Of a stretch of DNA of 64,000 nucleotides, positions 45,869-62,200 are shown one piece after another. Within the stretch, counting starts at the first letter, position 1. Each line of letters opens with the position of its first letter. The translations under genes were made by a program, and so were the position numbers. A model generated the notes under the pieces. That model saw only the letters and a program-made list of their open reading frames with translations, searched no databases and was not told where the DNA came from. Source of the DNA: an uncultured virus (IMG/VR IMGVR_UViG_3300005512_000013) (lineage: Duplodnaviria; Heunggongvirae; Uroviricota; Caudoviricetes); the IMG/VR virus record IMGVR_UViG_3300005512_000013. One strand, given 5' to 3'.

Positions 45869-45906
45869 GGTAGGTGTCCTTAGAGGGCTTCATGATAGTG
45901 AACTGT
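45866..45906 (-). repeat. 41/42-bp direct repeat (motif + RBS + ATG), partner at 50884-50925
   Basis: ACAGTTCACTATCATGAAGCCC(T)TCTAAGGACACCTACYATG; 1 mismatch and 1 indel between copies. Confidence 0.85.
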
Positions 45907-45930
45907 AAAACGTGATAGTGAAACTTCGCT

Positions 45931-47458: not shown

Positions 47459-47796
47459 TAGAAATCCTCTAGTCGGGGCACCTCATAGAAGCGCCTGATG
47501 TCGTGGTGAACAGCCAGCGCACGTTCCCAGCTTGCGCCACGGGAATGCTGCCAGTTGTTCATGAGATAGATAGCGTCACACTTAAGGAGTGCTTCGACAT
47601 CACGCAGCGCGCAGGCTGTGTAGTCGTAGTCCCCCATGACACGGGCAGGATCGATGCCAGCCTCACGGTCGAGACGGGCAGGGTTGATACAGGCCCAGCC
47701 TTCGTTAGTAAGCTGGAGTTCCTTAGTGTCAAACGCCTCCCAGTTGAGGTTGGTAATGCCTGACATAGGGCCAGCAATATAAATTGTTTTACTCAT
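47458..47796 (-). CDS. DUF4406 / nucleoside deoxyribosyltransferase-like protein
   Basis: IYIAGPMSG, INPA and CDAIYL..W..SRGA..E. Confidence 0.8.
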   Translation of the reverse strand: MSKTIYIAGPMSGITNLNWEAFDTKELQLTNEGWACINPARLDREAGIDPARVMGDYDYTACALRDVEALLKCDAIYLMNNWQHSRGASWERALAVHHDIRRFYEVPRLEDF

Positions 47797-48793: not shown

Positions 48794-48984
48794 TAGATAA
48801 TCTCTCCAACGGCGTAGAGCCAGAATGTCATTGATAGCGTGGCAAGTTCTTCGCCATGCAGTGTTACTCGGTTACCCCGCATACGGAGCAGGGTATTCAT
48901 TACCTTGGGCTTCTCTCGAAGCCATTTAACTTGGTCGATCAGCTCAGCGTTGAGCATGTCGGGGTCGTTGCTATAGTTAATCAA
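48793..48984 (-). CDS. Hypothetical protein (63 aa)
   Basis: Coupled ORF. Confidence 0.45.
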   Translation of the reverse strand: MINYSNDPDMLNAELIDQVKWLREKPKVMNTLLRMRGNRVTLHGEELATLSMTFWLYAVGEII

Positions 48985-49118
48985 AACGGGATCTCGTTGG
49001 GGTTATAGTTGGTGACCTGGACATAGATGCATTCCTCATCATAATCGGGGTACTCATCATAGTTCGGGTCGGTGACCCCCTCTCGGGGGTCTTCTTCGGG
49101 TGGATCGGGATCGATCAT
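48981..49118 (-). CDS. Acidic micropeptide (45 aa, MIDPDPPEED...NEIPF)
   Basis: Read by hand; GGGAG RBS, overlaps both neighbours by 4 nt. Confidence 0.5.
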   Translation of the reverse strand: MIDPDPPEEDPREGVTDPNYDEYPDYDEECIYVQVTNYNPNEIPF

Positions 49119-49423
49119 TTATGATACTCCCTAGTAAAGAATTGAACCTGGCGCTCAGACCAGGCGATGCACTCTTGGTTGAACTTCTCAGCATACGCAT
49201 CAGCAAACGTCTGGATCTGATGCTTCATGGTGATGTCATCAGAGACGATAGTAATGGTGAGGTTGTCTTCGATGAATGCCTCGCCGTCGGACACCCACTG
49301 GCCACGGCCATGGTTGACGGAGAGGCTGCACTCGAAGGACTCCTCGATGAAGTCGAAGCTGCCGGGCAGTTCTTCGACAAAGATACGGTACTCAGTCATA
49401 GGACAAACAGATTCAACAATCAT
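49115..49423 (-). CDS. Putative SAM lyase (T3 SAMase/DUF3574-like)
   Basis: GxW...E...FNQECI pattern parallels T3 SAMase GCY...EE...WEQDCV. Confidence 0.5.
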   Translation of the reverse strand: MIVESVCPMTEYRIFVEELPGSFDFIEESFECSLSVNHGRGQWVSDGEAFIEDNLTITIVSDDITMKHQIQTFADAYAEKFNQECIAWSERQVQFFTREYHK

Positions 49424-49643
49424 CAATGATCCTTACTTCCTCGTAGGAAATTTGTTGTTCATCAGAATCTTCAGAGGTCCATTCCTCATCGCCAATGACA
49501 AAGAGGAAGGGATCAATCTTACCTGTCTGTACACCCTTGATGAACTCATCTCGAGTTACGTCGTAATCAGGGCCAACCTTCAGGATGATATCACCATGGA
49601 CAACTTCAGAGTAGGGGATAGCAATATAAAACTTATCATTCAT
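49413..49643 (-). CDS. Hypothetical protein (76 aa)
   Basis: AAGGA RBS before MNDKF. Confidence 0.5.
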   Translation of the reverse strand: MNDKFYIAIPYSEVVHGDIILKVGPDYDVTRDEFIKGVQTGKIDPFLFVIGDEEWTSEDSDEQQISYEEVRIIDDC

Positions 49644-49869
49644 TGTCAGGTTCCTTTTGCTTCTGGCAGAGGACTTCTGTCTCGAGGTCGAACCAAGTGC
49701 CGCTGCCACCCTTGGCGAAGTATTCCCAATCCAGGCGGTATTCCTCGCCTTCGTTGAATGCCTTGGCGAGCTTAGCACGGGCTTCCTCTTCTGAGTCAGC
49801 CTCGATGGTAGTCCAGGCCTTACCGTACTCATCCTCGGAGTACCAGACCATCATGTCAAACTTAGCCAT
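49636..49869 (-). CDS. Hypothetical protein (77 aa)
   Basis: AAGGAG RBS; IEADSEEEA motif. Confidence 0.6.
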   Translation of the reverse strand: MAKFDMMVWYSEDEYGKAWTTIEADSEEEARAKLAKAFNEGEEYRLDWEYFAKGGSGTWFDLETEVLCQKQKEPDNE

Positions 49870-50312
49870 CAGTCTGCTCCTTCAGAGAGGGGGTTATCAA
49901 AGGTAGGGATATCGAAGCGGCGCTCACGTTCGAGCCACTCCTTAGCACGAGCAGACCAGCCAGTATACTCAGAGCAACCAACGCCTGGACGGTATCCGCT
50001 TATGTACTCAAGGTTCTCAAAGTCGGGGACCTGATTCATCATCTGACAAGCCGCGCCCATGGTGCGGTAGTCCTGGCAGTCGTACACGTTGTACGTGGTG
50101 TCATCCGACATCTTGTAGGCGTAGACCACACCGATCCAGTAGAGGACATCGGTATCGTCAAGCAGTACCCAACTGATGTCTCCGGGGTTTGGCATAGTCG
50201 ATGCATCGCTATAGTAGACCTCGAAGTTGCCATTGTATGCCTCCACTCTGTAGTAGGTGTTACGCATAGTGAAGCGGTACGTCTGCATTTCGTCTTCTGG
50301 GAAATCAATCAT
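49869..50312 (-). CDS. Hypothetical protein (147 aa)
   Basis: AAGGA RBS. Confidence 0.6.
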   Translation of the reverse strand: MIDFPEDEMQTYRFTMRNTYYRVEAYNGNFEVYYSDASTMPNPGDISWVLLDDTDVLYWIGVVYAYKMSDDTTYNVYDCQDYRTMGAACQMMNQVPDFENLEYISGYRPGVGCSEYTGWSARAKEWLERERRFDIPTFDNPLSEGAD

Positions 50313-50314
50313 TA

Positions 50315-50476
50315 CTAATGTCCTTCCTGACCTTCGGCCATAGCGAGGCAGAGGCCGATGTTAGCGAGGCCGTAGGCGTACCACATGATAGCCATGCCCC
50401 ATTCTTTTTTGGTCGTGTGATAGACCCCCTGCACCAGGTACAGGGCGCCCACGGTTAGAGGAATAACGTATCTCAT
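50315..50476 (-). CDS. Small two-TM membrane protein (53 aa, MRYVIPLTVG...)
   Basis: Read by hand; ATGA overlap with the upstream gene. Confidence 0.5.
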   Translation of the reverse strand: MRYVIPLTVGALYLVQGVYHTTKKEWGMAIMWYAYGLANIGLCLAMAEGQEGH

Positions 50477-50886
50477 CGGCGCGGCATGTGCCAATGGACT
50501 TTACGGACCATATCAGAGAAGGTACGAGTGGTGGCCTGGATGGCACGCTCCGCACGCTTCTTGATAGAACGCTCACGCTCCTCGAGGAGGATACGCATGC
50601 TTCGGCGGAGCTTTTCCACCTCGTTGCGCAGGTCACGGTACTCAGTAGTGATCTCGTTGATGGTGTCAGTGTTGTCAGCGACGTCCATCATGGACTCGTT
50701 GATGAGCTGCTGCACGTCGTCGGCATCGAGGACCTCAATCTCATCGATCATGGCTTGAACATCGTCGTCGTCCTGGAAGGAGTTATCGTTTTGGTTGATC
50801 ACTTCTTCGGCGCACTCGCGGATGTAGTCCTCGAGCTCGTTAGCCAGGTCAGCCATGTCAAACGTAAGGGTAGTGTTAATTTCCAT
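50473..50886 (-). CDS. Acidic/coiled-coil hypothetical protein (137 aa)
   Basis: Preceded by the repeat element and an AAGGA RBS. Confidence 0.65.
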   Translation of the reverse strand: MEINTTLTFDMADLANELEDYIRECAEEVINQNDNSFQDDDDVQAMIDEIEVLDADDVQQLINESMMDVADNTDTINEITTEYRDLRNEVEKLRRSMRILLEERERSIKKRAERAIQATTRTFSDMVRKVHWHMPRR

Positions 50887-50924
50887 AGTAGGTGTCCTTA
50901 GAAGGGCTTCATGATAGTGAACTG

Positions 50925-51104
50925 TCAGAAACAGCCATAGTCTTCGTCGGTGCCCCAGCCGCAGTCGCGGAAGGCACTGGCGTCGTCAAAGTCAAAGTCG
51001 TTGTCGAAGTCGTCATCTGCGGGGTCGTAGATCTCCTCTTCAGGAGTCAGTTCCTCGTAGGCGTCGAAGTCTTCGTCCTTGTCCTCTGGCGGGTCAGGAT
51101 CCAT
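50925..51104 (-). CDS. Extremely acidic small protein (59 aa)
   Basis: About 26 of 59 residues are D/E; starts MDPDPPED. Confidence 0.55.
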   Translation of the reverse strand: MDPDPPEDKDEDFDAYEELTPEEEIYDPADDDFDNDFDFDDASAFRDCGWGTDEDYGCF

Positions 51105-51435
51105 TGAGGTTCTCATAGAGATACTCCGAGAAGGATTCGAGGTTTTCCACAATGAATTTGTCGTTGTGGCAGTGATAGGGGGCCCAGTCAGTAACCAGGT
51201 CTTCGCGGTTCTCAGGGATGAGAGCCACGACGGTGTGCTTCTGGTTCTGGTTCTCGATGATGAGATGCGTCAGGTCCTCTGCAAGGAGTTCCTTAGCGAG
51301 CTCGCCGTGCGTATCGCAGACGATGTCCTCATCTTCGAATTGATCGTACATGTAGAGCGCGTAGCCTTCGTTCTCGAGCTTGCCGATGAAGGAGGTGAGA
51401 GCGTCTTCGATGAAAGTTCGGGTGATAGCATTCAT
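51094..51435 (-). CDS. Hypothetical protein (113 aa)
   Basis: Coupled ORF. Confidence 0.6.
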   Translation of the reverse strand: MNAITRTFIEDALTSFIGKLENEGYALYMYDQFEDEDIVCDTHGELAKELLAEDLTHLIIENQNQKHTVVALIPENREDLVTDWAPYHCHNDKFIVENLESFSEYLYENLNGS

Positions 51436-51734
51436 GCTGTGGTTACCTTGTCGTTGGACCAGACACGGCGTGAGATGATCCGCGTTCGCGGGTCTTCGTC
51501 GTGCTCGTAGAAATAGTTAACTAGAATGTAATCAAAGGCATCGGGGTTGAATCCGATGAAGTCGACTACGTTTACATGGTTGTAGCTTGGCGGGACACTC
51601 AACGGCGAGCTGTCCACGAGCGCCAATACTGAGTCCTTAGCATCTCCTTGGAGACGCTTTGGGCTCGGGGGTCGGCTGAAAGGCGGCTCGTCTTCTGAGC
51701 TGGCCTTGATAGCCTTCTCTAGCTTATCTGACAT
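51432..51734 (-). CDS. Hypothetical protein (100 aa)
   Basis: Coupled ORF. Confidence 0.5.
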   Translation of the reverse strand: MSDKLEKAIKASSEDEPPFSRPPSPKRLQGDAKDSVLALVDSSPLSVPPSYNHVNVVDFIGFNPDAFDYILVNYFYEHDEDPRTRIISRRVWSNDKVTTA

Positions 51735-51744
51735 ATTTATCCAA

Positions 51745-51918
51745 TCAAATGAAGGGATCGTAGGACCAGTCGGTCGCGAGGACAGCCTTGCGTTCGGCCT
51801 CTTCTCGCTTGCGCTTGGCGTAAGCCTGATACTTGTGAGCTGCCTCGTAGGACTTGGGATCTCCCCAGCCCTGCTTCTTGCAGAGTGCGACCCACTTCTT
51901 GCTGGCCTTGTTGGTCAT
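51745..51918 (-). CDS. Hypothetical basic protein (57 aa)
   Basis: ATGA overlap; starts MTNKASKKW. Confidence 0.5.
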   Translation of the reverse strand: MTNKASKKWVALCKKQGWGDPKSYEAAHKYQAYAKRKREEAERKAVLATDWSYDPFI

Positions 51919-52127
51919 TCGTTGATTCCAGTGGTGAGATCTTCGGACGAATCGACGCACATGGCGTCCCAGTTTTCCAGGATACCGGTATGCTCGGCGA
52001 TGATGCGCTCGAGGATTTCTCGGGGAGTGATCCAGGATTCGCTCATGAGGGAGCGAGAGTGCTGAGCCTGAAAGCCAGCGAGGCTTTCCCGGTAGTATTC
52101 CTTGGTGAGTCCTGCGTAAGTTTCCAT
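51915..52127 (-). CDS. Hypothetical protein (70 aa)
   Basis: AAGGA RBS, TAATG overlap. Confidence 0.55.
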   Translation of the reverse strand: METYAGLTKEYYRESLAGFQAQHSRSLMSESWITPREILERIIAEHTGILENWDAMCVDSSEDLTTGINE

Positions 52128-52279
52128 TAGATAATCCTTGCGTTGTAGAGTCTAGTGATGTGCTCGCGGAATGCGGCACGGGTATAACCATCGGGGAATG
52201 CTTGCGCCACAACGTGCTTGACTCCGAAGAGTACCACGCTGTAGCGCAGGATGGGATCATTGCTGCCGGAGGCGATCAT
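52127..52279 (-). CDS. Hypothetical protein (50 aa, MIASGSND...)
   Basis: Read by hand; overlaps both neighbours. Confidence 0.45.
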   Translation of the reverse strand: MIASGSNDPILRYSVVLFGVKHVVAQAFPDGYTRAAFREHITRLYNARII

Positions 52280-52665
52280 CGCATATGTCCTTTTACCTTT
52301 TTCCAATACGTGATAGTGATGAACTTCTTGTAGCCGTTGGGGCCACCGTTCCAGATGCGGGCTCGATCTTCGTCGGTTACAGTCCGACCGATTCGCCGAG
52401 CCGTGGCGTAGCGAGACATGTATGCACGGAATACGCGCTTGGAGTATTCCAAGTCTGCGCAGTCTTCATACTTGCCGGGGAGGTTGGCGTCTTGCCAGCA
52501 CGCCCGGTGAATCTGTAGTGGACCAAGAGCAGCACCACCATCGCCCAGGATAGGGCCGGTGCGACCAGAAGACTCAACCATATGTATGGCATTGATAAGC
52601 CTGTCATGCTCAGTCCCAGTCGTTGTGGCGAACATCATCGCCGTGATTATCATTAGACATTTCAT
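52276..52665 (-). CDS. Lysozyme-superfamily muramidase (i-type/destabilase-like) with signal-like N-terminus
   Basis: AIHMVESS, GPLQI..W.D, CAD..YMSRY and ARIWNGGP. Confidence 0.75.
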   Translation of the reverse strand: MKCLMIITAMMFATTTGTEHDRLINAIHMVESSGRTGPILGDGGAALGPLQIHRACWQDANLPGKYEDCADLEYSKRVFRAYMSRYATARRIGRTVTDEDRARIWNGGPNGYKKFITITYWKKVKGHMR

Positions 52666-52819
52666 TTTGGATTCCCTCTGTAACAGAGTAGATGTCCTTG
52701 GCAACTCCCTTGACTGTGTTGCATCCGGTGAGGAGCAACAGAGACGTGAGGAGCGTGAGAGCGGTAAGTGCACCAGCGATGGTGACCCAGCGCTCGACTG
52801 TGTTAGTCTTCATAGCCAT
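52610..52819 (-). CDS. Entericidin EcnA/B-like lipoprotein
   Basis: Lipobox LTGC followed by NTVKGVAKDI. Confidence 0.7.
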   Translation of the reverse strand: MAMKTNTVERWVTIAGALTALTLLTSLLLLTGCNTVKGVAKDIYSVTEGIQNEMSNDNHGDDVRHNDWD

Positions 52820-52990
52820 TTCCTTTCGTGATAGTGATTGTGAACTGATCCGGATGCTTTCTCCGGGTGCCGCACCGTGCGACGCTGTCCCTACTCAGTT
52901 TTCTGAGTGGGGAGTTTTCTACTATAATTGTGAAGCACTTCGATTAGGGCAGCCCTGTTCTTCGAAGAGCAGCCCTTTGATCCGACGTGC

Positions 52991-53026
52991 GAAAGCCCTC
53001 CCCCAGGTTTCCCCGAGGGAGGGCTT
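52991..53026 (-). terminator. Terminator-like hairpin after the small RNAP gene
   Basis: Minus strand AAGCCCTCCCTCGGG-GAAA-CCTGGGGGAGGGCTT followed by TC. Confidence 0.55.
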
Positions 53027-53037
53027 AGTGTGTGTGT

Positions 53038-54693
53038 TCAGATGAAGACCTCACCGATCAGGGTGGAGTCCTTCAGGTTGTCGAGCATTGTGTTGTTGTA
53101 ATTGAAGCCCTTCGTGTAGGCTTCCTTGGTTCCCTGATACGGGTTAGGGGTTTCTCGGATGACTGCTGCGTAGCACTGTGCTACGATCTCTCTCAGTCGG
53201 AGCGCGTTAGTGGGCGTGGTGAAGAAGGCATCGTGTACGGTTTTGATAGTGATACCTTCTGCTGCGCACTGGTTGATGACTCGGTGTACAACTGCCGCGT
53301 CAAGTGAGTGGACGAAGTTGGGCATGGTGCCTCCCGCGTCCGCTCCGGTTCTGTTCCGTTCGATGAGCCAGCCGTTAGGGGTGACCCATTCGATCGGGAA
53401 GTAAGCGCTGTCCTCGTCGTTAATGCTTGCGAACCATGCGGCCATTCGGCCCTTGAAGTCCCCAAAGGAGGGAAACTCTGCGTCAAGCTTTCTCTGTGCG
53501 ATTTCAGTGTAGTAGGACAGAGTGTCCCAGTTCCATTCGCCTCTGAGCCACTTGATGGTTGCGTTCTTGTTAGGCACTTCTTCGCCGTTGGAGTTCTCAA
53601 CCATTTCGCCTTCGTTGTCGATCCAAATGTTGAGGGCGATCTGCTCGTGATAACTGCCGTAGAAGGAGAGCATTACTACCGGCTTGGCAGCGTTGCGGAT
53701 CTTCCTCGGGTCAGTGATCCCTACGCTGTTGAGGAGGTTGACGATTGTGCTGTCTTTTACAATAAACGTGTAGAGGTCATGCTTGACGCTATCGGGGAGC
53801 AAGTTGGTGTACTTAGCCATCTTGGTGTCTCCCATGAGCATTGCAACAAACTGTGCCCCTGAGCAGGAGGCGTCTTGCTCCATCATGTACGCGGTTTTGC
53901 CGGTTGTCTTGACTTCCTTGATAGCGAGGGCTGCTCGGTATCGGTTGAGGTCGGAAGGCTCGGTAATCGGCTTGTTGAGGATTTGTCCCCAGTTCTTGTC
54001 GTTGACGCCATACTCGCTTTCTGTGATAGTGAGCATATATCGGTATTCTCGACTACCGTGCTTGATGTCGGTGGCCTCAGGTGCGTCCAGCATTGCTCGG
54101 TTGATCTTGCTTTGCGTGTACGATCCGAAGGTTCCACTCTGGTTGTAAGCCCTGCCGCGCCAGTCGCAGAATGCTTCTGAGTAGATTGGGCCTTCCCATT
54201 CGAGGAGTCCCTTGATAACGGCCCGCTCTTCAGGGGTCCAGGCGTTCATCCTGGTCCGCTGAACCAGTTTTCGCATCTCTTCGTTGAGTACGAGCGGGGT
54301 GTCTGCAAGAGTCTGAAGAGCGTTCTTCATGATGTCGGGCATCTCTTGCGCGTTGTTAGCGGAGTTGGACACTGCGGGTCGGTGGTAGCCCACTCGCAGC
54401 GGTGTCTTAGAGGGTTCGTTGACGATGAGCCCTTCTTCGGTTGCTTCGGCCCAGAGTGCTCCTCCGGTTCCGGGGATGGTTCGGATGAGCCCCTTCTTAG
54501 TGAGGTCTGCGATGTCGTGAATGAGAGCCGCCTTGTCGTTCCCATAGATTGCCAGGACGGTTTCATCGAGGTGAAGCGGGAGGGCCTTGACTTTGGTGGA
54601 GTCCTTGGGCAGGTACTTGTAGGCGTTGGTCTTCTTGAGGACGGTGTACTGGGCAGCGTTGATGTCTTGTCCGTTGACGTTGTAGTAGTTCAT
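53038..54693 (-). CDS. Second, miniature T7-family single-subunit RNA polymerase (551 aa)
   Basis: DWRGR, motif A DASCSGAQ, DLY, motif B RNAAKPVVMLSFYG, WVTPNG, PNFVHSLD, motif C VHDAF. Confidence 0.9.
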   Translation of the reverse strand: MNYYNVNGQDINAAQYTVLKKTNAYKYLPKDSTKVKALPLHLDETVLAIYGNDKAALIHDIADLTKKGLIRTIPGTGGALWAEATEEGLIVNEPSKTPLRVGYHRPAVSNSANNAQEMPDIMKNALQTLADTPLVLNEEMRKLVQRTRMNAWTPEERAVIKGLLEWEGPIYSEAFCDWRGRAYNQSGTFGSYTQSKINRAMLDAPEATDIKHGSREYRYMLTITESEYGVNDKNWGQILNKPITEPSDLNRYRAALAIKEVKTTGKTAYMMEQDASCSGAQFVAMLMGDTKMAKYTNLLPDSVKHDLYTFIVKDSTIVNLLNSVGITDPRKIRNAAKPVVMLSFYGSYHEQIALNIWIDNEGEMVENSNGEEVPNKNATIKWLRGEWNWDTLSYYTEIAQRKLDAEFPSFGDFKGRMAAWFASINDEDSAYFPIEWVTPNGWLIERNRTGADAGGTMPNFVHSLDAAVVHRVINQCAAEGITIKTVHDAFFTTPTNALRLREIVAQCYAAVIRETPNPYQGTKEAYTKGFNYNNTMLDNLKDSTLIGEVFI

Positions 54694-54704
54694 GTGTTCC
54701 TTAT

Positions 54705-54731
54705 CGTGATAGTGAATGTGAACTGTCCCCC
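54705..54731 (-). repeat. Early-region 27-bp motif GGGGGACAGTTCAYAWTCACTATCACG (copy before the mini-RNAP gene)
   Basis: Also at 56946-56972, 57628-57654 and 58037-58063; partial copies at 52827, 55541, 56281, 50911, 45892 and 45911. Confidence 0.9.
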
Positions 54732-54787
54732 GGTAGCGGCCGAGGGCTCCCTGTGTAGAGAGCCCCCGACCGAGCGCTGCCTTCGGA

Positions 54788-55252
54788 TCAGTCCTCCTGC
54801 AGGTTGCGGTTCTTCCGTATTGCTACAGCGAGTTGCTTTGCAGTGAATGTGAAGCCTCTACGTCTGGCTTCTTCGAGCGTTTCTTTGTAGTTGTCGTCCT
54901 TGCCTTGGAGCAGCGTTGCCATGACTGAGGCGTCCGTTGCGTTTTGAGGCTGGTATGCCTTCTTGGGAGCCTTGGGCATGTTTGCCTTGGCTTCAGGCGT
55001 GGGTTCGTACATGTCCACGGTGAAATCAAGGGGGTACTCGGTGAGTTCGGTCTCGTTGAGTACGCTGTTCGCACATGCTTGTCGGACGGGGCAGGCGATC
55101 TTACTCGCGAAGCCCTTTAGGTTGTTGACTGGAAGCGCCGTGTAGTTGTCGAGGATGTCCTTGACGGTGAGTTGATAGTGATACTTGTAGGGCGTGGCGC
55201 TGATGATGGGGAATTGCTTTCCTCCCCAGGTGCAGTGAGTCTTGTTATTCAT
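54788..55252 (-). CDS. Hypothetical protein (154 aa)
   Basis: AAGGGA RBS; immediately upstream of the mini-RNAP gene. Confidence 0.65.
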   Translation of the reverse strand: MNNKTHCTWGGKQFPIISATPYKYHYQLTVKDILDNYTALPVNNLKGFASKIACPVRQACANSVLNETELTEYPLDFTVDMYEPTPEAKANMPKAPKKAYQPQNATDASVMATLLQGKDDNYKETLEEARRRGFTFTAKQLAVAIRKNRNLQED

Positions 55253-55254
55253 GT

Positions 55255-55524
55255 TCAGAGTCCCTTCGGTCGGATGACGCGGTCGGTGACGTGGACGGTG
55301 TTGTCGGGCCCCGGCACGGTGCTGAGGTCCGGCTTGGGTCCTGCCGTCTGGGGCAGGTGCTCTCCGATTGGAGTCCAGATGTAGATGCCGCCTACTCCGG
55401 TCTTGCCTCCGTGTTGGGTGCAGCCTCCGAGTGAGAGTGCAAACAGGAGTGCAAGCCCTGCGAGGATGCCCACTGTGGTGTGGTGGGTCAGGATGTAGAT
55501 GAAGTTGTTGGTGTGTCGATTCAT
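55255..55524 (-). CDS. Putative lipoprotein
   Basis: Hydrophobic stretch ending in an LGGC lipobox; AAGGA RBS. Confidence 0.5.
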   Translation of the reverse strand: MNRHTNNFIYILTHHTTVGILAGLALLFALSLGGCTQHGGKTGVGGIYIWTPIGEHLPQTAGPKPDLSTVPGPDNTVHVTDRVIRPKGL

Positions 55525-55549
55525 GGAGTGATTCCTTGTGTGATAGTGA

Positions 55550-55990
55550 TCAGATGATGCGGAGGTTGAGGTCACCCTGATCCCTGAGGATCCTGATTCC
55601 CTCGGTGAGCAGGCGCTGCCCGTATCCGATCTGCTGAGTGGGCAGATCAGTCAGGACCGCGTTGATTGCCAGCAGCATGCTACTGACGGTTACGTTGGTG
55701 TGCTCGTGCCAGAATGTGGCCCAGTCGGTGACAGCCTGAGCGGCTTCGACTGCATCGCGGGTAGCCTGGTGGGCCCGCTCGTCCTTCCAGCGTCCGTAAC
55801 TGTCGTCGTACTCGTCGTCGCCCTGTTCGGCGTCGGCTCGGCAGCGGTCCATGTACTTTTCGCACTCGTCAGCGTTGTTCTCGAGGAGAGTGGCGACTGC
55901 CATGGTGAAGTGGGACAGGTTGGTGGAGGTGGCGTTCAGAATGCTCACGTTGAGCCCGCTTTGGTCGAGGTAGCAGATGTCCATGGTCAT
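55550..55990 (-). CDS. Hypothetical protein (~146 aa)
   Basis: AAGGGA RBS before MTMDIC. Confidence 0.55.
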   Translation of the reverse strand: MTMDICYLDQSGLNVSILNATSTNLSHFTMAVATLLENNADECEKYMDRCRADAEQGDDEYDDSYGRWKDERAHQATRDAVEAAQAVTDWATFWHEHTNVTVSSMLLAINAVLTDLPTQQIGYGQRLLTEGIRILRDQGDLNLRII

Positions 55991-56003
55991 GATTCGGTTC
56001 CCT

Positions 56004-56264
56004 TCAGGGTGTGGTTGTGATTGCGAAGATTCCTGCCCATCCGATTGCGAATGTGAGGATATCTTGTGGTGTGAGTTTGTCCCCGTTGTCGTGTACCCAT
56101 CCAAGTGCTCTGGCTATGATGCCAATCAGGGCGGGTACACCGAGGAAGCATACGGCGGGCCAGCAGATGCCAAACCAGATTGCTCCTTCTTTGGAGGAGG
56201 TGGTTTGTATAAGTGTGGCCGCTATTGTAACTACAATGAAGAGCATCATAGCGTCCATGGTCAT
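56004..56264 (-). CDS. Small multi-pass membrane protein
   Basis: Three hydrophobic segments; preceded by the motif and an AAGGA RBS. Confidence 0.55.
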   Translation of the reverse strand: MTMDAMMLFIVVTIAATLIQTTSSKEGAIWFGICWPAVCFLGVPALIGIIARALGWVHDNGDKLTPQDILTFAIGWAGIFAITTTP

Positions 56265-56289
56265 GGTTCTATTCCTTGTGTGATAGTGA

Positions 56290-56550
56290 TTAGTCTTCTT
56301 CGACGTGACGAAGGGTGGAGATTTGGAGGTTGGTGAGTTCCTCAAGGTAGCCCTTGAGTTCTTCGATGCGTTCTTCTTCTCGTTCGATGTACTTGACCAG
56401 TTCGTCCTGCGTGATTTCCCAGTTCGCTGAGTACGCTTCGGGGTCGTTGGTGTAGTACTCACTGCAGCAGCCGCAGGAGGCCGTGCTGATGCTGAGGTGT
56501 CCGCGGTGGACGCTTGCTCGGTCGATGGTTTCGTCGGTGAGGTGTCTCAT
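56290..56550 (-). CDS. Hypothetical protein with CGCC motif and coiled coil
   Basis: AAGGGA RBS before MRHLT. Confidence 0.55.
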   Translation of the reverse strand: MRHLTDETIDRASVHRGHLSISTASCGCCSEYYTNDPEAYSANWEITQDELVKYIEREEERIEELKGYLEELTNLQISTLRHVEED

Positions 56551-56560
56551 GCGTTCCCTT

Positions 56561-56815
56561 TCAGGAATTGGGGTTGCTGATGAGGTGGATGATGGTTTGC
56601 ACAATCTTCTCTTCTTGGGAGAAGTCCATGTTTGCCATTTCGTAGTCCTCAATGAGTTCGATGATGGGGCAAGCCCTCTGGCAAGCCTTGAGGATCAGGT
56701 GAGCGGGCAGGTTCGCGTAGTTCTTCTTAGCGCTGCCCCAGAGGTTGTGCAGGAGGTCGTGGGCGGTGCTGCCCGGAACCAGGTGTTCTGCGGTTCGTTC
56801 GATGTATGCGTTCAT
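56561..56815 (-). CDS. Hypothetical protein (84 aa)
   Basis: AAGGA RBS. Confidence 0.55.
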   Translation of the reverse strand: MNAYIERTAEHLVPGSTAHDLLHNLWGSAKKNYANLPAHLILKACQRACPIIELIEDYEMANMDFSQEEKIVQTIIHLISNPNS

Positions 56816-56937
56816 TTGGTGTTCCTTGACTTGAGTGTGAGTTTGATGGAGTCTCGTGTCTCTCCGTAGATACAGAGTACTCCTTGGATAATTGAATATC
56901 CGAAAATGCAGAGGAAAAGCGTGAGTGCTGTCGTCAT
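56812..56937 (-). CDS. Hydrophobic micropeptide (41 aa, MTTALTLFL...)
   Basis: Read by hand; directly after the 27-bp motif, ATGA overlap downstream. Confidence 0.45.
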   Translation of the reverse strand: MTTALTLFLCIFGYSIIQGVLCIYGETRDSIKLTLKSRNTK

Positions 56938-56945
56938 GGGGTTCT

Positions 56946-56972
56946 CGTGATAGTGAATATGAACTGTCCCCC
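56946..56972 (-). repeat. Early-region 27-bp motif copy
   Basis: Exact consensus match; GC-rich hairpin immediately upstream. Confidence 0.9.
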
Positions 56973-57006
56973 GGAAGCAGGCGCAGGTGCGCCCGCCGCC
57001 GGTGGC

Positions 57007-57237
57007 TCAGATGTCGGTCCAGTCTTCTTCTTCGTCATCTTCGTCCGAGCAGTCCTCGTCGAGTGCGTCCATCGTAGCGATGGTTTCTTCGAGGCTATCA
57101 AGCAGCGGCTGTGCTGCTTCCATGATTGGACTGAGCAGGGTGTGCTCTTCGTCGGTGAGCTGGTCCTGCTTGTTCTCGAGGGTGTGGATGAGCAGGGTGA
57201 GTTCGGCGATCTGGTCAGTGGTGTACGTGCTTTGCAT
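57007..57237 (-). CDS. Acidic small protein (76 aa)
   Basis: AAGGGA RBS; D/E-rich tail. Confidence 0.6.
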   Translation of the reverse strand: MQSTYTTDQIAELTLLIHTLENKQDQLTDEEHTLLSPIMEAAQPLLDSLEETIATMDALDEDCSDEDDEEEDWTDI

Positions 57238-57627
57238 GGGATCGTTCCCTTGTGTTGGATGTGAGGTATAGTGCCGCGAGGTACAGCACTGCGTACTTGA
57301 TGATGTGTGCTTCGATCATGGGTTCTCTCAGCAGAGTCCGATGAAGAGGAGCAGGGCGTACTTCCAGGTTTGCTTGTTCATCTGTATTGCTCCGTCCAGT
57401 GCTTGCCGTTCGGTTGTGGCTTAGCGGGTGTGTTGAGTGCCTTCAAGACGATCTTGATGACTACGATGAGTGCGATGGTAGCGATTGCTGCGAGCATTGG
57501 TCAGTTCCCTTCGATCAGGCGTGTGACTGCCGCGATGCCGGTCCCGAGTGCGAGGCCAGTGAATACGACAGTGAATACTTGGTAGAGTCTGAATTCGATT
57601 TCTTCTCGCATGGTGTTGTGTCCTCTG

Positions 57628-57654
57628 CGTGATAGTGAATATGAACTGTCCCCC
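57628..57654 (-). repeat. Early-region 27-bp motif copy
   Basis: Identical to the 56946 copy; hairpin upstream. Confidence 0.9.
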
Positions 57655-57771
57655 ACATGAGGAGCGAGGGCAGCCCTGCGGCTACCTTCGCTCCTCCGTG
57701 GTTCACTGTGCGGCCGCTCGTGCAGCCTCGATCCGTTCGATTGCTTCTTCGAGTGTCATCGGGTGTTCCCT

Positions 57772-58014
57772 TCAGGAGAGTGTGCTGAGCAGTTCGACGT
57801 CGTTGTAGCCCGGTTCGCTGCAGACGTCGAGGTGCTGCAGGTTGCCGCTCATGTCCCGTGCGAGGACGGTCCACTGGGCCCCGTCGATTGCTTCATTGCA
57901 GGTGAGCACGGTCACGAGACGGCCAGCCTCGTGCGTGTCGAGCACGTGCTGGACGTGGGCGGTGTCGGCGAGGTCCGGGTTCGTGTTGGGTTCGAATTCG
58001 TTTGCGAGGTTCAT
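57772..58014 (-). CDS. Hypothetical protein (80 aa)
   Basis: AAGGA RBS before MNLANE. Confidence 0.55.
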   Translation of the reverse strand: MNLANEFEPNTNPDLADTAHVQHVLDTHEAGRLVTVLTCNEAIDGAQWTVLARDMSGNLQHLDVCSEPGYNDVELLSTLS

Positions 58015-58036
58015 GGGTGATTCCTTTGGATTGAGT

Positions 58037-58063
58037 CGTGATAGTGATTGTGAACTGTCCCCC
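58037..58063 (-). repeat. Early-region 27-bp motif copy
   Basis: Consensus match; hairpin upstream. Confidence 0.9.
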
Positions 58064-58104
58064 ACTTTGGGGGCAGCCCTGCGGCCGCCCCCTCCGTGGT
58101 CCCC

Positions 58105-58371
58105 TCAGGCGCGCACCTGTTCGGTGCCGCCCTTGGGGTAGAACGTGACCTCGAAGCGCCGGCCGATCTTCGCTGCGTGCTGCCGCGCGAAGGTTTCGGC
58201 TTCCTCTCGGGTCATGTTCTCTCGGGCCATCCAGTTGACGGCTCCGGTTTCGAGGTTCCGGATGCCGAACATGACGGTCGCCTCGAGGACCTCTTCCGCC
58301 GGTGCCGCCTTCATGGCAGCGAGTTCGGCTTCGAGTTCGTTGACGCGGTCCTGCAGTTCTGCCTTAAGCAT
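58105..58371 (-). CDS. Hypothetical protein (88 aa), probable first early gene
   Basis: AAAGGA RBS; N-terminal coiled coil. Confidence 0.65.
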   Translation of the reverse strand: MLKAELQDRVNELEAELAAMKAAPAEEVLEATVMFGIRNLETGAVNWMARENMTREEAETFARQHAAKIGRRFEVTFYPKGGTEQVRA

Positions 58372-58399
58372 GGTGTTCCTTTCGGTTGAAGTGTTGAAG

Positions 58400-59230
58400 C
58401 GGAGGGTTCCTGCCCCCCAGCCGCCAATGCAGTTAGCCGAGCTTGCGAGGCTTGCCGCCTTGCCGCCTTGGCTATCGAGTGCAGCTCTGCTATCGTGCAG
58501 CTGCTGCCGCCAATGCAGCCCGCCGAGCTTGCGAGGCCGGTGGCTGAGTGGGCTGCCTCGGCCATCGACTCATTGAGCGAAAGAAGCAGGTAACCACACG
58601 TCTACACCTTAGCCACCAGCAGTACATTAGACGAGAGGCAGCCCGCGAAGGCAGCGATGCAGCGGCGATGTTGGTGGCAAAGGGGCGAAGCCCCGCTTGG
58701 GTGTGTGCGACCGACGAGTCCGCGAGGAGGGAGCTGTGTTGGTGGCCGAGAGGCGAAGCCTCGAGGTTCTTGAAGAGGGGGGTTATGGGGGGAAACTAAA
58801 AAGATTAAAAGAGAAGATAGCCGCCTGTGTATTCCCAGGGGGTAAGTCGATTTCCCCGATCCCGAGTCGAAGGCGCAGCAGCTCCACTGATGTAGCAACT
58901 ACCACTGGTAAGCCACTGATAGACTGCTATGAGCTCTGGGTTGGTAGCTAAGGGGATACTGAGACGGAAGCTAAGCAGTCTAGGTAGCTCCTTAGACACC
59001 AACTATATTATGTATTACTAATATACTTCTTAGTATATACTACTAAGCCATACAACCTTTACGGCATCAAAAACCCACTCTACACTCTTCCCATCCAGCG
59101 CCTGCCAACGTGGCAGTGACACGCAGACGGAAGCTAAGAGGCTTAGGGTGTTATCGTATAAATATTATAATAAGTCCCCCTAAGTCGGGGCGGCCCAGCC
59201 GGCATTGCTGCCAACCAGACCGCCCCCACA
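58400..59230. other. Non-coding genome-end region (probable terminal repeat / entry region)
   Basis: About 0.8 kb with no credible ORF, between the last structural gene and the first early gene; contains direct repeats, hairpins and AT-rich patches. Confidence 0.55.
59037..59058 (-). promoter_or_regulatory. Putative phage RNAP promoter, copy 3 (genome end, phiOR/phiOL-like position)
   Basis: AGGTTGTATGGCTTAGTAGTAT, a perfect 22-bp repeat. Confidence 0.65.
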
Positions 59231-59239
59231 AGGAGAGTA

Positions 59240-62200
59240 TCACTTTCCTAACTTGTCCGCCAGGGAGCCACCTGCGGATCCCGGTCCCATCGCGTTCCCC
59301 TTAGGAGTCGCAATGGTACCTGAGAGGCCGGAGGATCCTCCCTGAGGCGTTCCAGCCCCGCTTACTCCCGGAGATGAGTCTCCAGTCGTCTGCGGAGTTT
59401 TGGGCGATTCAAAGCCCGCTACGTAGTCAGCCTTCAATTTGGCATAGTCCCTAGCTCGGCCCTTGAGACGAGTCTGCTTAGGAGCCGGCCCCCGGTATTC
59501 GGGGACTGCATTGAAGTTCCCCAGGATCTGGAGATTCTTCGGACGATGCGATTGAGGCGTACCACTGGCGTCCTTGAAGTCACCAGTCGCTCCTCGGAGC
59601 CCCGCCACCAGAAGGGGACGGAATTCCGCGGGACCGTACTTGTACAAGAACTCCTTAGCCTGACTCGCAGCCTCAGCGGGGTTGCCCTCAAGGAGAGCGC
59701 TGCCGCCCTGCTTCACCAGATCGGTGAACGCAGTGATGCTCTGGATCATCATAGACGGTCCAGGCATGCCGGGGGTGTTCATACCGAAGGAGCGCTCCTG
59801 GGCCTTAGAGCCAAAGACCGCGCCTCCGCTGAGCTTCCCGACAGAGGAAGTCAGACTATTCATAATCATATCAGTTAGGAACGACCCGGCCCCAAAGACA
59901 GGCATACGAGCAAGAGCGGTGGTCATCTGCCCAGGGGCATCAGTCCGCCAGTCCTCCGCGATCGCCTCCGGGGAGTCGCCGTTCTTCATCCTGTTCAGCG
60001 AGTACCACATGACCTCACCGAAGTAGAGAGGCATGAGCATAGCCGCGGTGGCACCGAGGCCGGTAGCCGCCAGGCCAGCCATGACTTCTCGCATGAACAG
60101 AATAGAATATTGTGATAGCTGCTGCCACATACGGACAACGGGGCTCGTGTTCAAGTTGGTCGTACCAACTCGGGGCTCCATGTTCGTCTTGGCAACTTGG
60201 TTGAAGAGAAGCTGCTGGAGGCCAGTAGCCGCCTTGCCGGACTTGAGAGACTCCTTGCCTCTTCCGAGGCCAGGCTCCCAAGCGACAGCATCAAACATCT
60301 CTTCATACTTCAGGAACGTGTTATCAGGCATATAGTCTTCAGCCAGCTCAGACACCCGCCGAGCCATCTCCGGAGAGAGTAGACCCAGGCCGTGCATCTG
60401 AGTAGCCACGTCAGCCTTCACACCGTTCTCCTTCGCAAGGCGTCGAATCAGCTTGGCGTCAATAGTGCCCTCAGGGTTGGAGGCAATCCAATCGTTGAGA
60501 GCGTCAGCCAGCTTCATGGCCTTAGAGTTTCCGTCGGCGTCCGTGACCAGCATCTTCCGGAGAAGCTGCTGAGCAGGGATCATGGCCGCCTCACGCTGAG
60601 CGAGCTGCACTCGTTCAAACGCGAAGGAGCCCAAACGACGGATCTTCTTGTTAGCCTTGTCGTGGAAGCTTTCCTTGAGCGAGGGGTCCAGGGCCATTGC
60701 AGCCGAGGCCTCGTCGCCCATGTTCCAGATGTGACCGAAGCCAAGCTTCGTCATATGGTAGGGCATGGTGATACCGATGGCGTGCATCGAATCCCGCATG
60801 GCCCCCATGTCACCGGCGTACTTTGGAAGAGTCATCTTCGTTCCGTCGGTGAACATCTTAGCTGCACGATTGACCAAGCCAGCCGTGCCTTCCACAATGA
60901 GGGACGCAGTCGTCCAGTTAGGCGTGGTCGCAAGACCGACCGCCGTCTGAATCGTAGGAGCAACAGCTTCGAGGAAGTCATTGCCCGACTCATCCTTATA
61001 CGAAGGGTTACGGCCCTGGGCAAGCCTGTACTGAGACTCGAGGTTCTCAATCTCCTTGATCGCAGCGCGCTGCTGAGAATCGGAGAGCTTGACCATGGTA
61101 CCGTCCTGCGAGACACGCGCCCGATGGACGCGAGCCTTAAGAGCATTCAGGAGATCGCCATAACCGAAGCCGGTAATGCCGTAGTACTCCTGATTAAAGA
61201 ACTTGTCCGTGACTCCATGATCGAAGGCCATAAAGGTCTTCAATACATTAATAGGAGTACGGTTCAGACCCCGACCAGCAACACCGTCGTTCAAGATACG
61301 TCGGAAGTCACCGCCGCTCATGAAGCGGTTGTTAGCGAAGGAGTAACCACCGTGACGACTGCGATACAACATCTTCATTGCTTCGTAGTCGGCCGGCGAG
61401 GATACTTCCCTACCCGAGGCAAGTACCGCACGGAACTTAGCTCGGTCCTCCGGATCGGGGAAGTCCCGATCAAGGTGGCGCATATAGAAGGGGACATTCT
61501 TACTGTCCGTGAACACAGCGGGGTCAACGCGCCCCTGCATGGCCTGCTTGTAGACATCCCGCAACTGAGTGGGCATATCCTTAGCGTGCCACTGACCGGC
61601 CTCCATTTTCTCTTGGAGAACCTGAGACGCCAGCCAGAACTCGTCAGAACGATCACCGCCATCAAAGCCGATGTCGTACTTGCTTTCATCAATGTTCAGC
61701 TTGCCTTCGTCAATAATAATATCAACGAGATCCGAACCATAGACGGAGTCCAGGGTATCGACATGGCGAGCCCGATCGGTGGGAGACATTGCTGACTTCC
61801 ACGGAGCGAAGATGCCATAGTCGTGCATGAATTGTGCATTCACGAACCCCTGTCGTTCCTCGGGAACGGAGGGATCATATTCAAGTCGTCGAATCTGCTC
61901 TTGGCGGATGCCGTCACCAACCTTGATGGACATCTCGCGCATAGCAGAATCTTCCTTGATGATCTGGCTAAGCTGAATAGGCAGCTGGCGATTCCCGTCA
62001 CCGACGAGACTATCGACCACCCACTTATCCATCTCACCAGTTTGATGCGCGTTCTTATACGCACGGTCGTACAGCTTAGCGAATTCACGCGAAGCAGTCT
62101 CGACCAGGTTGGCGGCATGCGGGTTCACACGCCCCAACTCATCCAGAGCCTCGGTATTATCCGGATGGCCGATGAAGGTTTCTTCAAACGCATCATCAAC

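Follow-up and report, generated by a model that had tools for sequence, protein, structure and literature searches.

A short strand-restricted word in the early region of a two-polymerase phage as a candidate promoter for its minimal RNA polymerase

The window, the whole 64,000-nucleotide stretch analysed here, belongs to a T7-like phage of ~74.5 kb that encodes two single-subunit RNA polymerases (RNAPs). A nine-base core, TCACTATCA, was found 14 times between 45893 and 58047, always on the minus (coding) strand. The motif, its restriction to one strand and one region, its tie to the family of the smaller polymerase (mini-RNAP) and the anatomy of that enzyme are established by the results below. 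The core is probably a very short promoter (-8 to +1) for the phage's own mini-RNAP, similar to that of N4 RNAPII.

The repeated core and its sites

The 14 copies compare with a chance expectation of 0.41, and none of 100 shuffles reached that number. In unbiased 8-mer counts CACTATCA was the top or joint-top 8-mer of the window's early region (14 copies, 0 on the opposite strand), and TCACTAT occurred in the window 15 times on the minus strand and never on the plus strand. One-mismatch variants of the core were not enriched (four minus, three plus), and two of the four minus-strand matches were TCACAATCA half-copies within a longer 27-mer, GGGGGACAGTTCAYAWTCACTATCACG. This 27-mer was present four times, without mismatch and on the minus strand only, and no match was obtained in any of 100 shuffles; all four copies lay exactly where the first-pass annotation had placed them (58037, 57628, 56946 and 54705). 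The 21-mer CAGTTCAYAWTCACTATCACG occurred five times, and the copy additional to the 27-mer set, at 52827-52847, confirmed by exact match the 21-bp version reported at 52827. Two of the extra cores listed earlier (56281 and 55541) were exact, whereas three had to be shifted, to 50912 from 50911, to 45913 from 45911 and to 45893 from 45892. All copies on that list were thus real to within 1-2 bases, but four had been missed (55173, 54024, 53244 and 52311). The copy said to head the mini-RNAP gene does so, with the motif ending at 54705 and the ATG at 54693.

The sites ended 9-44 nt 5' of a start codon in 11 of 14 cases, whereas such positions make up 13% of the region (binomial p = 5e-8, using our own gene calls). 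The nearest record, G001 (62,311 b), spans everything else in the genome, with 10.4 kb of it lying beyond the window. No core copy was found in the remaining 62 kb of the genome, and G001 carried the 58047 copy only, in agreement with the earlier remark that the motif is limited to the early region. No sigma-70-like site was found on the coding strand of 44500-59400.

Table 1. Core-bearing sites, upstream folds and polymerase genes, by position in the window
Feature	Position	Strand	Remarks
Class A site 1, 27-mer (16-nt extension, TCACTATCA, CG)	58037..58063	-	24 nt before ATG 58014
Class A site 1, last A of core	58039	-	
Class A site 2, 27-mer	57628..57654	-	19 nt before ATG 57610
Class A site 3, 27-mer	56946..56972	-	10 nt before ATG 56937
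Class A site 4, 27-mer, heads mini-RNAP gene	54705..54731	-	13 nt before ATG 54693
Class A-like site 5, 21-mer without GGGGGA	52827..52847	-	
Class B site, stop TAA directly followed by 19-mer TCACTATCACACAAGGAAT	56281..56289	-	16 nt before ATG 56264
Class B site, stop TGA directly followed by TCACTATCACACAAGGAAT	55541..55549	-	16 nt before ATG 55524
Class C site, ACAGTTCACTATCA then conserved leader	50912..50925	-	25 nt before ATG 50886
Tandem pair, core 45913-45921 and class C copy 45893-45906	45893..45921	-	final copies; 24 and 44 nt before ATG 45868
Core in 3' end of destabilase-like ORF	52311..52319	-	38 nt before next gene's ATG 52272
Intragenic core, 154-aa ORF	55173..55181	-	
Intragenic core, mini-RNAP gene	54024..54032	-	residue 221
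Intragenic core, mini-RNAP gene	53244..53252	-	residue 481
Hairpin, site 1	58069..58092	-	10 pairs, loop GCAG; outer CCAC/GUGG stem widens it to 58062-58099; no T-run after; z -2.60
Hairpin, site 2	57653..57701	-	~21 pairs with internal loops, GCAG apex as at site 1; 3' end overlaps first 2 nt of 27-mer; z -4.98
Hairpin, site 3	56971..57002	-	9 + 4 pairs; z -3.23
Hairpin, site 4	54732..54781	-	15 + 3 + 2 pairs; abuts 27-mer; z -5.26
Three small hairpins, site 5	52850-52913	-	z -3.69
Mini-RNAP gene, 551 aa	53038..54693	-	single-subunit RNAP, all catalytic residues
Full-size T7-like RNAP gene, 830-834 aa	39588..42080	-	specificity loop kept

Folding confirmed the hairpin claimed before every long-motif copy: a stable fold preceded all five sites (z -2.6 to -5.3 vs shuffles), ending 0-5 nt before the motif or overlapping its first 2 nt, and four of four short-core sites tested had no stable fold (z -0.9 to -1.9). 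The GCC-GCAG-GGC apex common to the hairpins at 58037 and 57628 was seen as described, with different stems. Four of the five folded better in sense than in antisense (-34.1/-25.3, -34.4/-32.8, -21.8/-19.8 and -32.4/-25.8) and one better in antisense (-21.9 sense vs -27.1 antisense). These hairpins contain G-U pairs; because T-runs were absent, none was called a canonical terminator.

The two polymerases and the distant mini-RNAP loci

As judged from its predicted structure, the mini-RNAP is a true single-subunit RNAP. It aligned with the T7 RNAP elongation complex over 454 residues (VIA-align, Z 31.9, rmsd 5.5). Foldseek gave a match with E 4e-15, and the top match of the model was the yeast mitochondrial RNAP initiation complex. 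The PDB profile matches were to mitochondrial RNAP (9e-21), T7 RNAP (5e-15) and, weakest, N4 RNAP2 (7e-10). Residues D421, R423, G424, R425, D537, R627, K631, Y639, G640, H784, H811 and D812 (T7 numbering) were invariant. However, the G732-P780 interval held 16 residues vs 47 in T7, and 176 residues vs 420 preceded the DxRGR motif; the specificity loop is missing from the mini-RNAP, as is most of the N-terminal domain. The last core copies lie upstream of the full-size RNAP gene. Nothing resembling a gp2/Drc cofactor was recognised in this phage.

Six independent mini-RNAP loci, with 30-36% protein identity to the mini-RNAP of the window, were compared. CACTATCA occurred 3-6 times, on the coding strand only, in five of them (L006, 6; L008, 5; L010 and L011, 4 each; L013, 3) and once in L009; it ranked first, alone or tied, among the 8-mers of L006, L008, L010 and L013. 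The architecture of L011 is that of the window, with the mini-RNAP near the contig start and the full-size RNAP 7 kb further on, and all four of its motif sites precede the full-size RNAP gene. The other relatives are short pieces (2-3 kb) around the mini-RNAP gene, in which linkage of the motif to that gene cannot be told apart from linkage to the early region. The motif accompanied the mini-RNAP across hosts differing in GC content (48-66%). Across five lineages, ten copies fell inside the coding sequence of the mini-RNAP, no two of them at homologous positions. Beyond the 8-mer only one base before and one base after were conserved in the relatives, giving a family-wide consensus YCACTATCAY of ~10 nt. 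The composite of hairpin, 27-mer and RBS proposed at first pass is present here, but the unit common to the family is the ~10 nt alone. The hairpins and the 16-nt extension are lineage-specific, and recognition in the relatives would do without both.

A proposed minimal promoter and its alternatives

The likeness of TCACTAT to the T7 promoter core, pointed out earlier, held: it is identical to positions -8 to -2 of phi1.1A, where the annotated start lies two bases further on. CACTATAGG is common to three unrelated T7-type promoters in Table 2 of PMC13029058, and T7 promoters are described there as 23 bp long (-17 to +6) and dependent on the AT-rich loop and the specificity loop. The phi1.1A match and the recurrence of the core on the coding strand of the 30-36%-identity loci lend independent support to the original proposal of promoters for the mini-RNAP, which is upheld in part. 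From these data we infer the promoter role, the start site, the reading enzyme and the following cascade. In the phi1.1A register, the last A of the 9-mer would be the first transcribed base, and leaders of ~10-45 nt would carry the ribosome-binding site. The mini-RNAP has neither of the T7 parts that read -17 to -7 (the specificity loop and the segment with the AT-rich loop) and could therefore read the start-proximal core only; it may require a melting or single-strand-binding cofactor. Fourteen gene-co-directional promoters would serve the early ORFans and, as positive feedback, the mini-RNAP's own gene; read-through from the last tandem pair, at 45.9 kb, would extend transcription to the genes of nucleotide metabolism and to that of the full-size RNAP. 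Afterwards the full-size RNAP would take over, probably starting from another word, an exact 22-mer. The class A extras, a conserved 16-nt upstream extension and a GC-rich hairpin that lacks a T-run, may act as a strengthening or insulating module, made of the upstream unit's 3'-end hairpin and a cofactor site or extended contact.

Promoters for the mini-RNAP leave several observations unexplained, and each weakens the reading. Strict reading of 9-10 bases is unaccounted for in an enzyme without the T7 upstream-specificity elements. The copies inside mini-RNAP genes are not predicted by a simple promoter model and would yield truncated polymerase transcripts. The first ORF (58371-58105) has no motif copy upstream, the first transcriber of the mini-RNAP gene is not explained, and L009 holds one copy only.

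A role at the RNA level fits the strand bias and the position equally well. We consider it quite unlikely that the motif acts in RNA, whether as the place where an endoribonuclease of host or phage cuts or as an element of the 5' leader tuning translation or stability. In the cleavage version, polycistronic early RNA would be cut between the upstream hairpin, acting as 3' protector, and the RBS; in T7, RNase III cuts early RNA between genes. The strictly sense-strand position of the motif between hairpin and RBS, the G-U pairs, the better sense folding in four of five cases and the lack of T-runs are consistent with this role. However, the seven-base identity to the T7 promoter core, in start-site register, would then be coincidence (by our rough estimate, a random 8-mer has a 6-mer in common with the T7 core, in some register, with a probability of ~0.002), the motif follows the mini-RNAP across the 48-66% GC hosts and is also present without a hairpin, no Rfam family matched it, and with copies in the mini-RNAP ORF the enzyme's own mRNA would be cut.

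The class A composite, or the core, might instead be a promoter for a different polymerase, either a virion-delivered RNAP module in the 4668-aa giant protein (with infection starting at hairpin promoters, as in N4) or the full-size T7-like RNAP. All 27 nt are nearly identical although the adjoining hairpins have wholly diverged, and the sequence that is read therefore goes beyond the 9-mer; the length of 27 nt is as expected for an enzyme with a specificity loop, and the hairpin-motif spacing is fixed (0-5 nt). Class A sites fall within the first 6 kb, one of them before the mini-RNAP gene, like N4 vRNAP promoters, which precede the RNAPII genes (PMC4496689). In the giant protein a conserved block, KRPVMTRSYG (residue 1958 in P0035), aligned confidently to T7 motif B, and hhalign of segment 1500-2450 against T7-like RNAPs gave E 0.0012, compared with 0.38-0.56 for three other segments. 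Yet the hhalign probability was just 19% with that single confident block, and the protein had no match in Pfam, PHROG, PDB or Atlas. The stems here (9-21 bp, 4-nt loops, variable, at least 20 nt upstream of the core) are unlike N4 hairpins, and in relatives the core is retained but the extension is not. The full-size RNAP is expected on middle and late genes, where no core copy was found and the exact 22-mer precedes the gene blocks instead. We regard a different reader as unlikely.

Highly improbable, in our judgement, is a DNA-level role in which the hairpin and 27-mer matter chiefly as recombination points that mobilise ORFan early genes, like the cassette borders formed by PeSLs, which are composite terminator/promoter motifs (PMC4122927), or the word marks strand-specific nicks or replication priming. 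The composite stem-loop and promoter repeat does flank small ORFan genes, none of the first 22 early ORFs had a PHROG family, and two assemblies break at copies (G001, aligned end 45898; L007, start 56953). A recombination role is nevertheless compatible with a promoter role, PeSLs being promoters too, and the tight placement before start codons and the conservation over 30%-identity lineages favour an expression signal.

Likeness to known systems

The sites resemble the T7 group in being co-directional, in the start-site register and in lying partly within coding sequence, as some T7 promoters do. They differ in that only ~10 nt are common to the mini-RNAP family, in the predicted -1/+1 bases (C/A here vs A/G in T7) and in their early position, including before the polymerase's own gene. 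The yeast mitochondrial nonanucleotide promoter, at which Rpo41 acts together with Mtf1, spans 9 nt from -8 to +1 with an A start, as predicted here; its sequence differs. Rpo41, a large enzyme, depends on a separate initiation factor, whereas the mini-RNAP is small and no candidate factor was recognised.

N4 vRNAP promoters share inverted repeats before left-end early genes in a podovirus with a giant virion-type ORF. However, their hairpins are described as having stems of 5-7 bp, a loop of 3 nt, a centre at -11 and conserved bases (PMC4496689), whereas those here are 9-21 bp, variable and upstream of a conserved motif. In T4-type PeSLs a stem-loop and early promoter are likewise repeated between small variable early genes (PMC4122927); those promoters are host sigma-70 early promoters, whereas the coding strand of 44500-59400 here yielded no sigma-70-like site.

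N4 RNAPII, a minimal phage RNAP, is described as using a -7 to +2 promoter and transcribing the left half of the genome into overlapping RNAs (PMC4496689). Both are minimal T7-family polymerases made early with a very short promoter (here ~-8 to +1/+2), and in both many promoters yield, here by prediction, overlapping co-directional transcripts over the left part. N4 RNAPII (gp15/gp16) is a 673-aa heterodimer with a specificity loop, whereas the mini-RNAP is a single 551-aa chain without one; N4 middle promoters are AT-rich, and the word here is 5/9 A/T. For late genes N4 uses the host RNAP, whereas the phage here also encodes a full-size T7-like RNAP.

Distribution of the core word and the genome that carries it

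The 9-mer TCACTATCA occurred in 14 exact copies between positions 45893 and 58047 of the window, all on the minus strand, against an expected 0.41, and TCACTAT was found 15 times in the window on the minus strand and never on the plus strand. The 27-mer (a 16-nt extension, the core and CG) was present in four exact copies with a 21-mer version as a fifth site, as the first-pass annotation had reported, and its coordinates were correct to within 2 bases. The other copies it listed were also recovered, and four more that it had missed were located at 55173, 54024, 53244 and 52311. The observation is solid, and wider than first reported. Confinement of the core to the early region was likewise borne out: the only copy in G001, the nearest genome record, was that at 58047, showing that the word is absent from the remaining ~62 kb. 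One-mismatch variants of the 9-mer were not enriched (4 on the minus and 3 on the plus strand, two of the former being the half-copy TCACAATCA inside the 27-mer); therefore, each base of the 9-mer seems to matter. The sites were grouped by their flanks into three classes, besides copies within coding sequences (see table). Eleven of the 14 sites ended 9-44 nt before a start codon with a ribosome-binding site (RBS); positions of this kind make up 13% of the region (binomial p = 5e-8, a statistic that rests on our own gene calls). No core copy was found upstream of the first ORF (58371-58105). The last copies, at 45921 and 45901, lay just before the block with ribonucleotide reductase and the full-size RNAP.

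Nearly all long ORFs of the window are minus-strand genes, spanning ~58.4 to 3.2 kb, and PHROG and Pfam scans revealed a T7-like gene order. None of the first 22 early ORFs matched a PHROG family. No DNA match to a close phage was obtained in the GenBank collection, and both polymerases were <30% identical to any record. The assembly totaled 74,500 b. The G001 record (62,311 b) covers the same genome from window 57976 to 64000 and on through 10,359 further bases to window 45898, and hence is without ~12 kb, exactly the motif-rich region; the metagenomic locus L007 is the same phage at 99.96% identity. Both of these public assemblies are broken within motif copies, G001 at its end (window 45898) and L007 at its start (window 56953), and the other end of G001 is 61 b from one. 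Motif repeats fragment short-read assemblies in this way, and the early region may thereby be hidden in virus catalogues.

Features of the window, with further repeats and domains observed alongside the early-region sites
Feature	Position	Strand	Details
Giant ORF (P0035)	59240-64000 and beyond (L005:1265-15271)	minus	4668 aa
22-mer	59037-59058; 45282-45303; 31360-31381	minus (coding)	AGGTTGTATGGCTTAGTAGTAT, exact
AT-rich patch	~59000-59035		
Direct-repeat pairs	58420-58537; 58649-58763		32 nt at 91% identity; 47 nt at 72%
ORFan early genes			first block in T7-like order
Class A sites			hairpin + GGGGGACAGTTCAYAW + core; four full sites, one partial
Class B sites			stop codon + TCACTATCACACAAGGAAT; two sites
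Class C sites			ACAGTTCACTATCA + conserved leader; two sites, a further core lying 20 nt upstream of one
Coding-sequence copies of core			four
Mini-RNAP gene (P0001)	53038-54693	minus	551 aa, single chain; PF00940, E 9.6e-21
Destabilase (i-type lysozyme) domain ORF	52276-52773	minus	E 2.3e-7; early region, just after mini-RNAP gene
Thymidylate synthase, dUTPase, ribonucleotide reductase			block between mini-RNAP and full-size RNAP
AT-rich 29-nt repeats	42067-42119; 37854-37905	minus	~AATTTTCAAA...GGTTGAAAAA
Full-size T7-like RNAP gene	39588-42092 (42080 in another call)	minus	834 aa; phrog_414, E 6.5e-143
Primase/helicase and DNA polymerase			after full-size RNAP
T-run hairpins, structural region	24409-24438; 14660-14685; 11513-11540; by eye 31020, 21050, 7080, 5480	minus	directly before next gene's RBS
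Portal, capsid, tail genes, then large terminase			end of T7-like order
9-nt periodic (collagen-like Gly-X-Y) repeat	17126-17339		within tail-fibre gene 16596-18014

The mini-RNAP family and the word in its relatives

The AlphaFold model of the mini-RNAP, built from A1 (an alignment of 12 family members), was usable (pLDDT 81.8, pTM 0.79). Foldseek matched it to yeast mitochondrial RNAP and T7 RNAP (E 4e-15), and VIA-align to the T7 elongation complex (Z 31.9, rmsd 5.5, 454 aligned) and the N4 mini-vRNAP (Z 19.1). When T7 RNAP, the full-size enzymes of the window and of the related locus L011, and seven mini-RNAPs were aligned (A3), all catalytic positions (D421, R423, G424, R425, D537, R627, K631, Y639, G640, H784, H811 and D812) were invariant. 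The T7 specificity loop corresponded to a 31-33-residue gap in the mini-RNAPs, whereas it was kept in both full-size enzymes; in P0001, 16 residues separate the equivalents of T7 G732 and P780, compared with 47 in T7. Only 176 residues precede the DxRGR motif, compared with 420 in T7, indicating that the AT-rich-loop region and much of the thumb are missing. A small beta-hairpin (model residues 70-84) aligned, at low confidence, with the region of the T7 intercalating hairpin in the predicted structure.

The family is small (14 clusters of 358-573 aa in a 5.8-billion-protein set) and rare (34 cluster representatives at E <= 1e-30 among 1.84 billion). Two protein homologues of the mini-RNAP, P0002 and P0003, share 82% and 70% identity with it. 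No match to the mini-RNAP, to A1 or to the giant-protein alignment was obtained in viral_contigs. With A1, a single locus (L006) was recovered from genome_contigs and a further seven (L007-L013) from metagenome contigs. As L012 duplicates L010 and L007 is this phage itself, neither was counted as independent. Six independent lineages remained, with polymerases 30-36% identical to that of the window; the DNA comparison covered identical DNA (L007, G001) and relatives at 36% identity or less.

In the six lineages, with L007 and L012 left out, all 26 occurrences of CACTAT were on the coding strand. The counts of the 8-mer CACTATCA, which lies within the core, were unbiased, all 8-mers having been ranked per locus. 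Always on the coding strand, it was the top 8-mer in L006 (6 copies) and L008 (5), joint top in L010 (4) and L013 (3), and not top in L011 (4, with 12.5 kb of the 38-kb contig covered) or L009 (1). The motif thus co-occurs with mini-RNAP genes in six further lineages. In the flanks of 20 relative sites, only the base before (T or C) and the base after (C or T) were conserved; as the sites were selected by the 8-mer, the information content of the core is by construction and only the flanks are informative. The layout of L011 was like that of the window: a 489-aa mini-RNAP encoded close to the start of the contig is followed 7 kb downstream by a full-size RNAP of 813 aa. All four L011 core sites precede the full-size RNAP gene, with a hairpin ~20 nt ahead of two. 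In L006 and L013 the word can precede the hairpin instead, showing that the order is not fixed.

Ten copies were located inside mini-RNAP coding sequences of five lineages (window, L006, L008, L010 and L011), at ten different alignment columns. Nine of them shared one codon phase (xxC-ACT-ATC-Axx), and the encoded Thr-Ile was lineage-specific. A repeat driven by the peptide was rejected because of the ten non-homologous columns and the lineage-specific dipeptide; the copies were gained independently. These intragenic copies are not expected under a plain promoter model. They may supply genes further downstream, or the word may also serve another function.

Hairpins, the 27-mer extension and other repeats

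A stable fold was predicted before all five class A sites (z -2.60, -4.98, -3.23, -5.26 and -3.69), ending 0-5 nt before the motif or overlapping its first 2 nt. The stems (9-21 bp with 4-nt loops) varied in sequence and length, with a GCAG apex common to two, in agreement with the first description of GC-rich hairpins of variable sequence before each long copy. No significant fold was detected at the four class B and C sites tested (z -0.86 to -1.93), and the motif matched no known RNA family or tRNA. The class A hairpins contain G-U pairs and were more stable in the sense than the antisense orientation in four of five cases, weakly favoring an RNA role. Canonical intrinsic terminators (hairpin and U-run) were rejected: the hairpin tails (AAAGUGGGGG, AUGUGGGGG, UUCCGGGGG and UACCGGGGG) have no T-run directly after the stem, and none of the five was called by the terminator scan. 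Hairpins of a different class, strong and with T-runs, were observed in the structural region.

All of the 27-mer was conserved despite divergence of the hairpins next to it, which argues that some factor reads more than the core. It was present at only 4-5 sites, in this phage alone among the loci compared. As relatives share only ~10 nt and the hairpin order is not fixed there, the extension and hairpin are additions of the window's lineage. The proposed unit of hairpin, 27-bp motif and RBS therefore holds for this phage, whereas in relatives the shared element shrinks to ~10 nt.

The 22-mer copies precede the early, replication and structural blocks at spacings of 13,755 and 13,922 b, and the 22-mer would be the obvious candidate promoter of the full-size RNAP; its left-most copy would presumably resemble T7's leftmost own promoter. 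In relatives, only one weak look-alike was found (CTTGGTAGTA, L011 364), before the first core site of L011. Both direct-repeat pairs fall within the 670 untranslated nt that separate the first ORF from the left-most 22-mer. The AT-rich 29-nt repeats, which immediately precede the full-size RNAP gene and recur ahead of the gene at 37784, may be regulatory sites.

Between the end of the giant ORF and the left-most 22-mer are 180 b; the ORF product had six homologues (P0036-P0041) of 4618-5014 aa. No match was found in Pfam, PHROG or PDB, nor by phmmer against PDB, tblastn against phages or in the ESM Atlas. By hhalign, the conserved block KRPVMTRSYG (residue 1958) was paired confidently with T7 motif B, and segment 1500-2450 gave E 0.0012 (probability 19%), compared with E 0.38-0.56 for three control segments. 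The AlphaFold model of residues 1400-2599 from seven sequences was poor (pLDDT 49, pTM 0.30), and Foldseek returned nothing for it at E <= 0.001. An FDG block near residue 1623 and a HEIGH metalloprotease-like motif at 3268 were also seen. It is possible that the giant protein belongs to the virion and contains a polymerase module, as in N4.

A candidate minimal promoter and its comparison with known systems

TCACTAT is identical to -8 to -2 of the T7 promoter phi1.1A, confirming the likeness to the start-proximal T7 core noted at first pass; the annotated phi1.1A start is the G after CACTATA, and CACTATAGG is common to three unrelated T7-type promoters in Table 2 of PMC13029058. With the register taken from phi1.1A, transcription would start at the last A of the 9-mer. 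On the comparative sequence evidence, the word is probably the minimal promoter of the mini-RNAP; it would then represent a novel class of very short promoters used by a novel family of miniature single-subunit RNAPs (ssRNAPs). The polymerase, without the parts that read -17 to -7, would read the start-proximal word alone. The last core copies, just before the ribonucleotide reductase/full-size RNAP block, suggest a cascade in which the mini-RNAP acts first and the full-size RNAP second. The first-pass proposal of promoters for the mini-RNAP thus gained support from distant mini-RNAP loci and the T7 core match, but the extended element it described is not shared.

A host sigma-70 promoter was rejected, since no such site was found on the coding strand and the relatives have no conserved -35-like position; between 44500 and 59400, sigma-70-like sites numbered 0 on the minus strand and 8 on the plus strand, the latter equal to the shuffle mean. 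In a bolder reading, three single-subunit-type polymerases encoded by the phage, each reading a distinct site class, would carry out its entire programme. A putative polymerase module in the 4668-aa virion protein would start at the hairpin and 27-mer elements, the 551-aa mini-RNAP, as the smallest promoter-specific type of ssRNAP known, would read the bare 9-mer without a specificity loop, and the full-size T7-like enzyme would read the exact 22-mer heading each third of the genome. We regard this as quite unlikely; if true, it would be an N4/T7 strategy hybrid with no need for host RNA polymerase.

If the minimal-promoter reading of the word is true, strict promoter choice by a T7-family enzyme requires very little protein, a single chain of 480-570 aa without a specificity loop being enough. 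It would also bear on start-proximal base reading by N4 RNAPII and mitochondrial polymerases, and offer synthetic biology a very compact orthogonal polymerase-promoter pair. Such a podovirus lineage, with a cascade of two (possibly three) RNA polymerases of its own, would be so far undescribed: among the open-access papers and preprints listed, covering two-polymerase phages, N4 RNAPII, giant virion polymerases with a T7-like RNAP, and the 9-mer with RNA polymerase, there was no description of such a phage or of the 9-mer as a promoter.

T4 PeSLs are described as composite terminator/promoter motifs (PMC4122927). The first-pass comparison with them stood for the architecture, a stem-loop and candidate promoter repeated between variable early genes, but not for the promoter itself, which in T4 is a host sigma-70 early promoter and here has no counterpart on the coding strand. 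The class A hairpins also differ from the N4 vRNAP hairpin promoter, which has a 5-7 bp stem, a 3-nt loop and conserved bases and is centred at -11. T7-type promoters share the start-proximal core, and the window, like T7, encodes ssRNAPs (mini and full-size); however, they span ~23 bp from -17 to +6 with AT-rich and specificity-loop parts, whereas only the 8-mer and two flanking bases are conserved here.

N4 RNAPII is described as using a minimal -7 to +2 promoter, with many overlapping transcripts from the left half of the genome, and as depending on a single-strand-binding cofactor (PMC4496689, PMC7145618). Its middle promoter is "highly enriched in AT pairs" (PMC4496689), whereas TCACTATCA has 5 A/T of 9. 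RNAPII is a gp15/gp16 heterodimer with a gp2/Drc-type ssDNA-binding cofactor; the mini-RNAP is a single 551-aa chain, and no such cofactor was recognised, the first 22 early ORFs being without PHROG matches; one from a new family may exist. The two systems share a polymerase with reduced promoter-recognition elements and a short promoter, ~10 nt conserved here in a register derived from T7. By analogy, the word would work like the N4 RNAPII promoters while not being a member of the N4 system.
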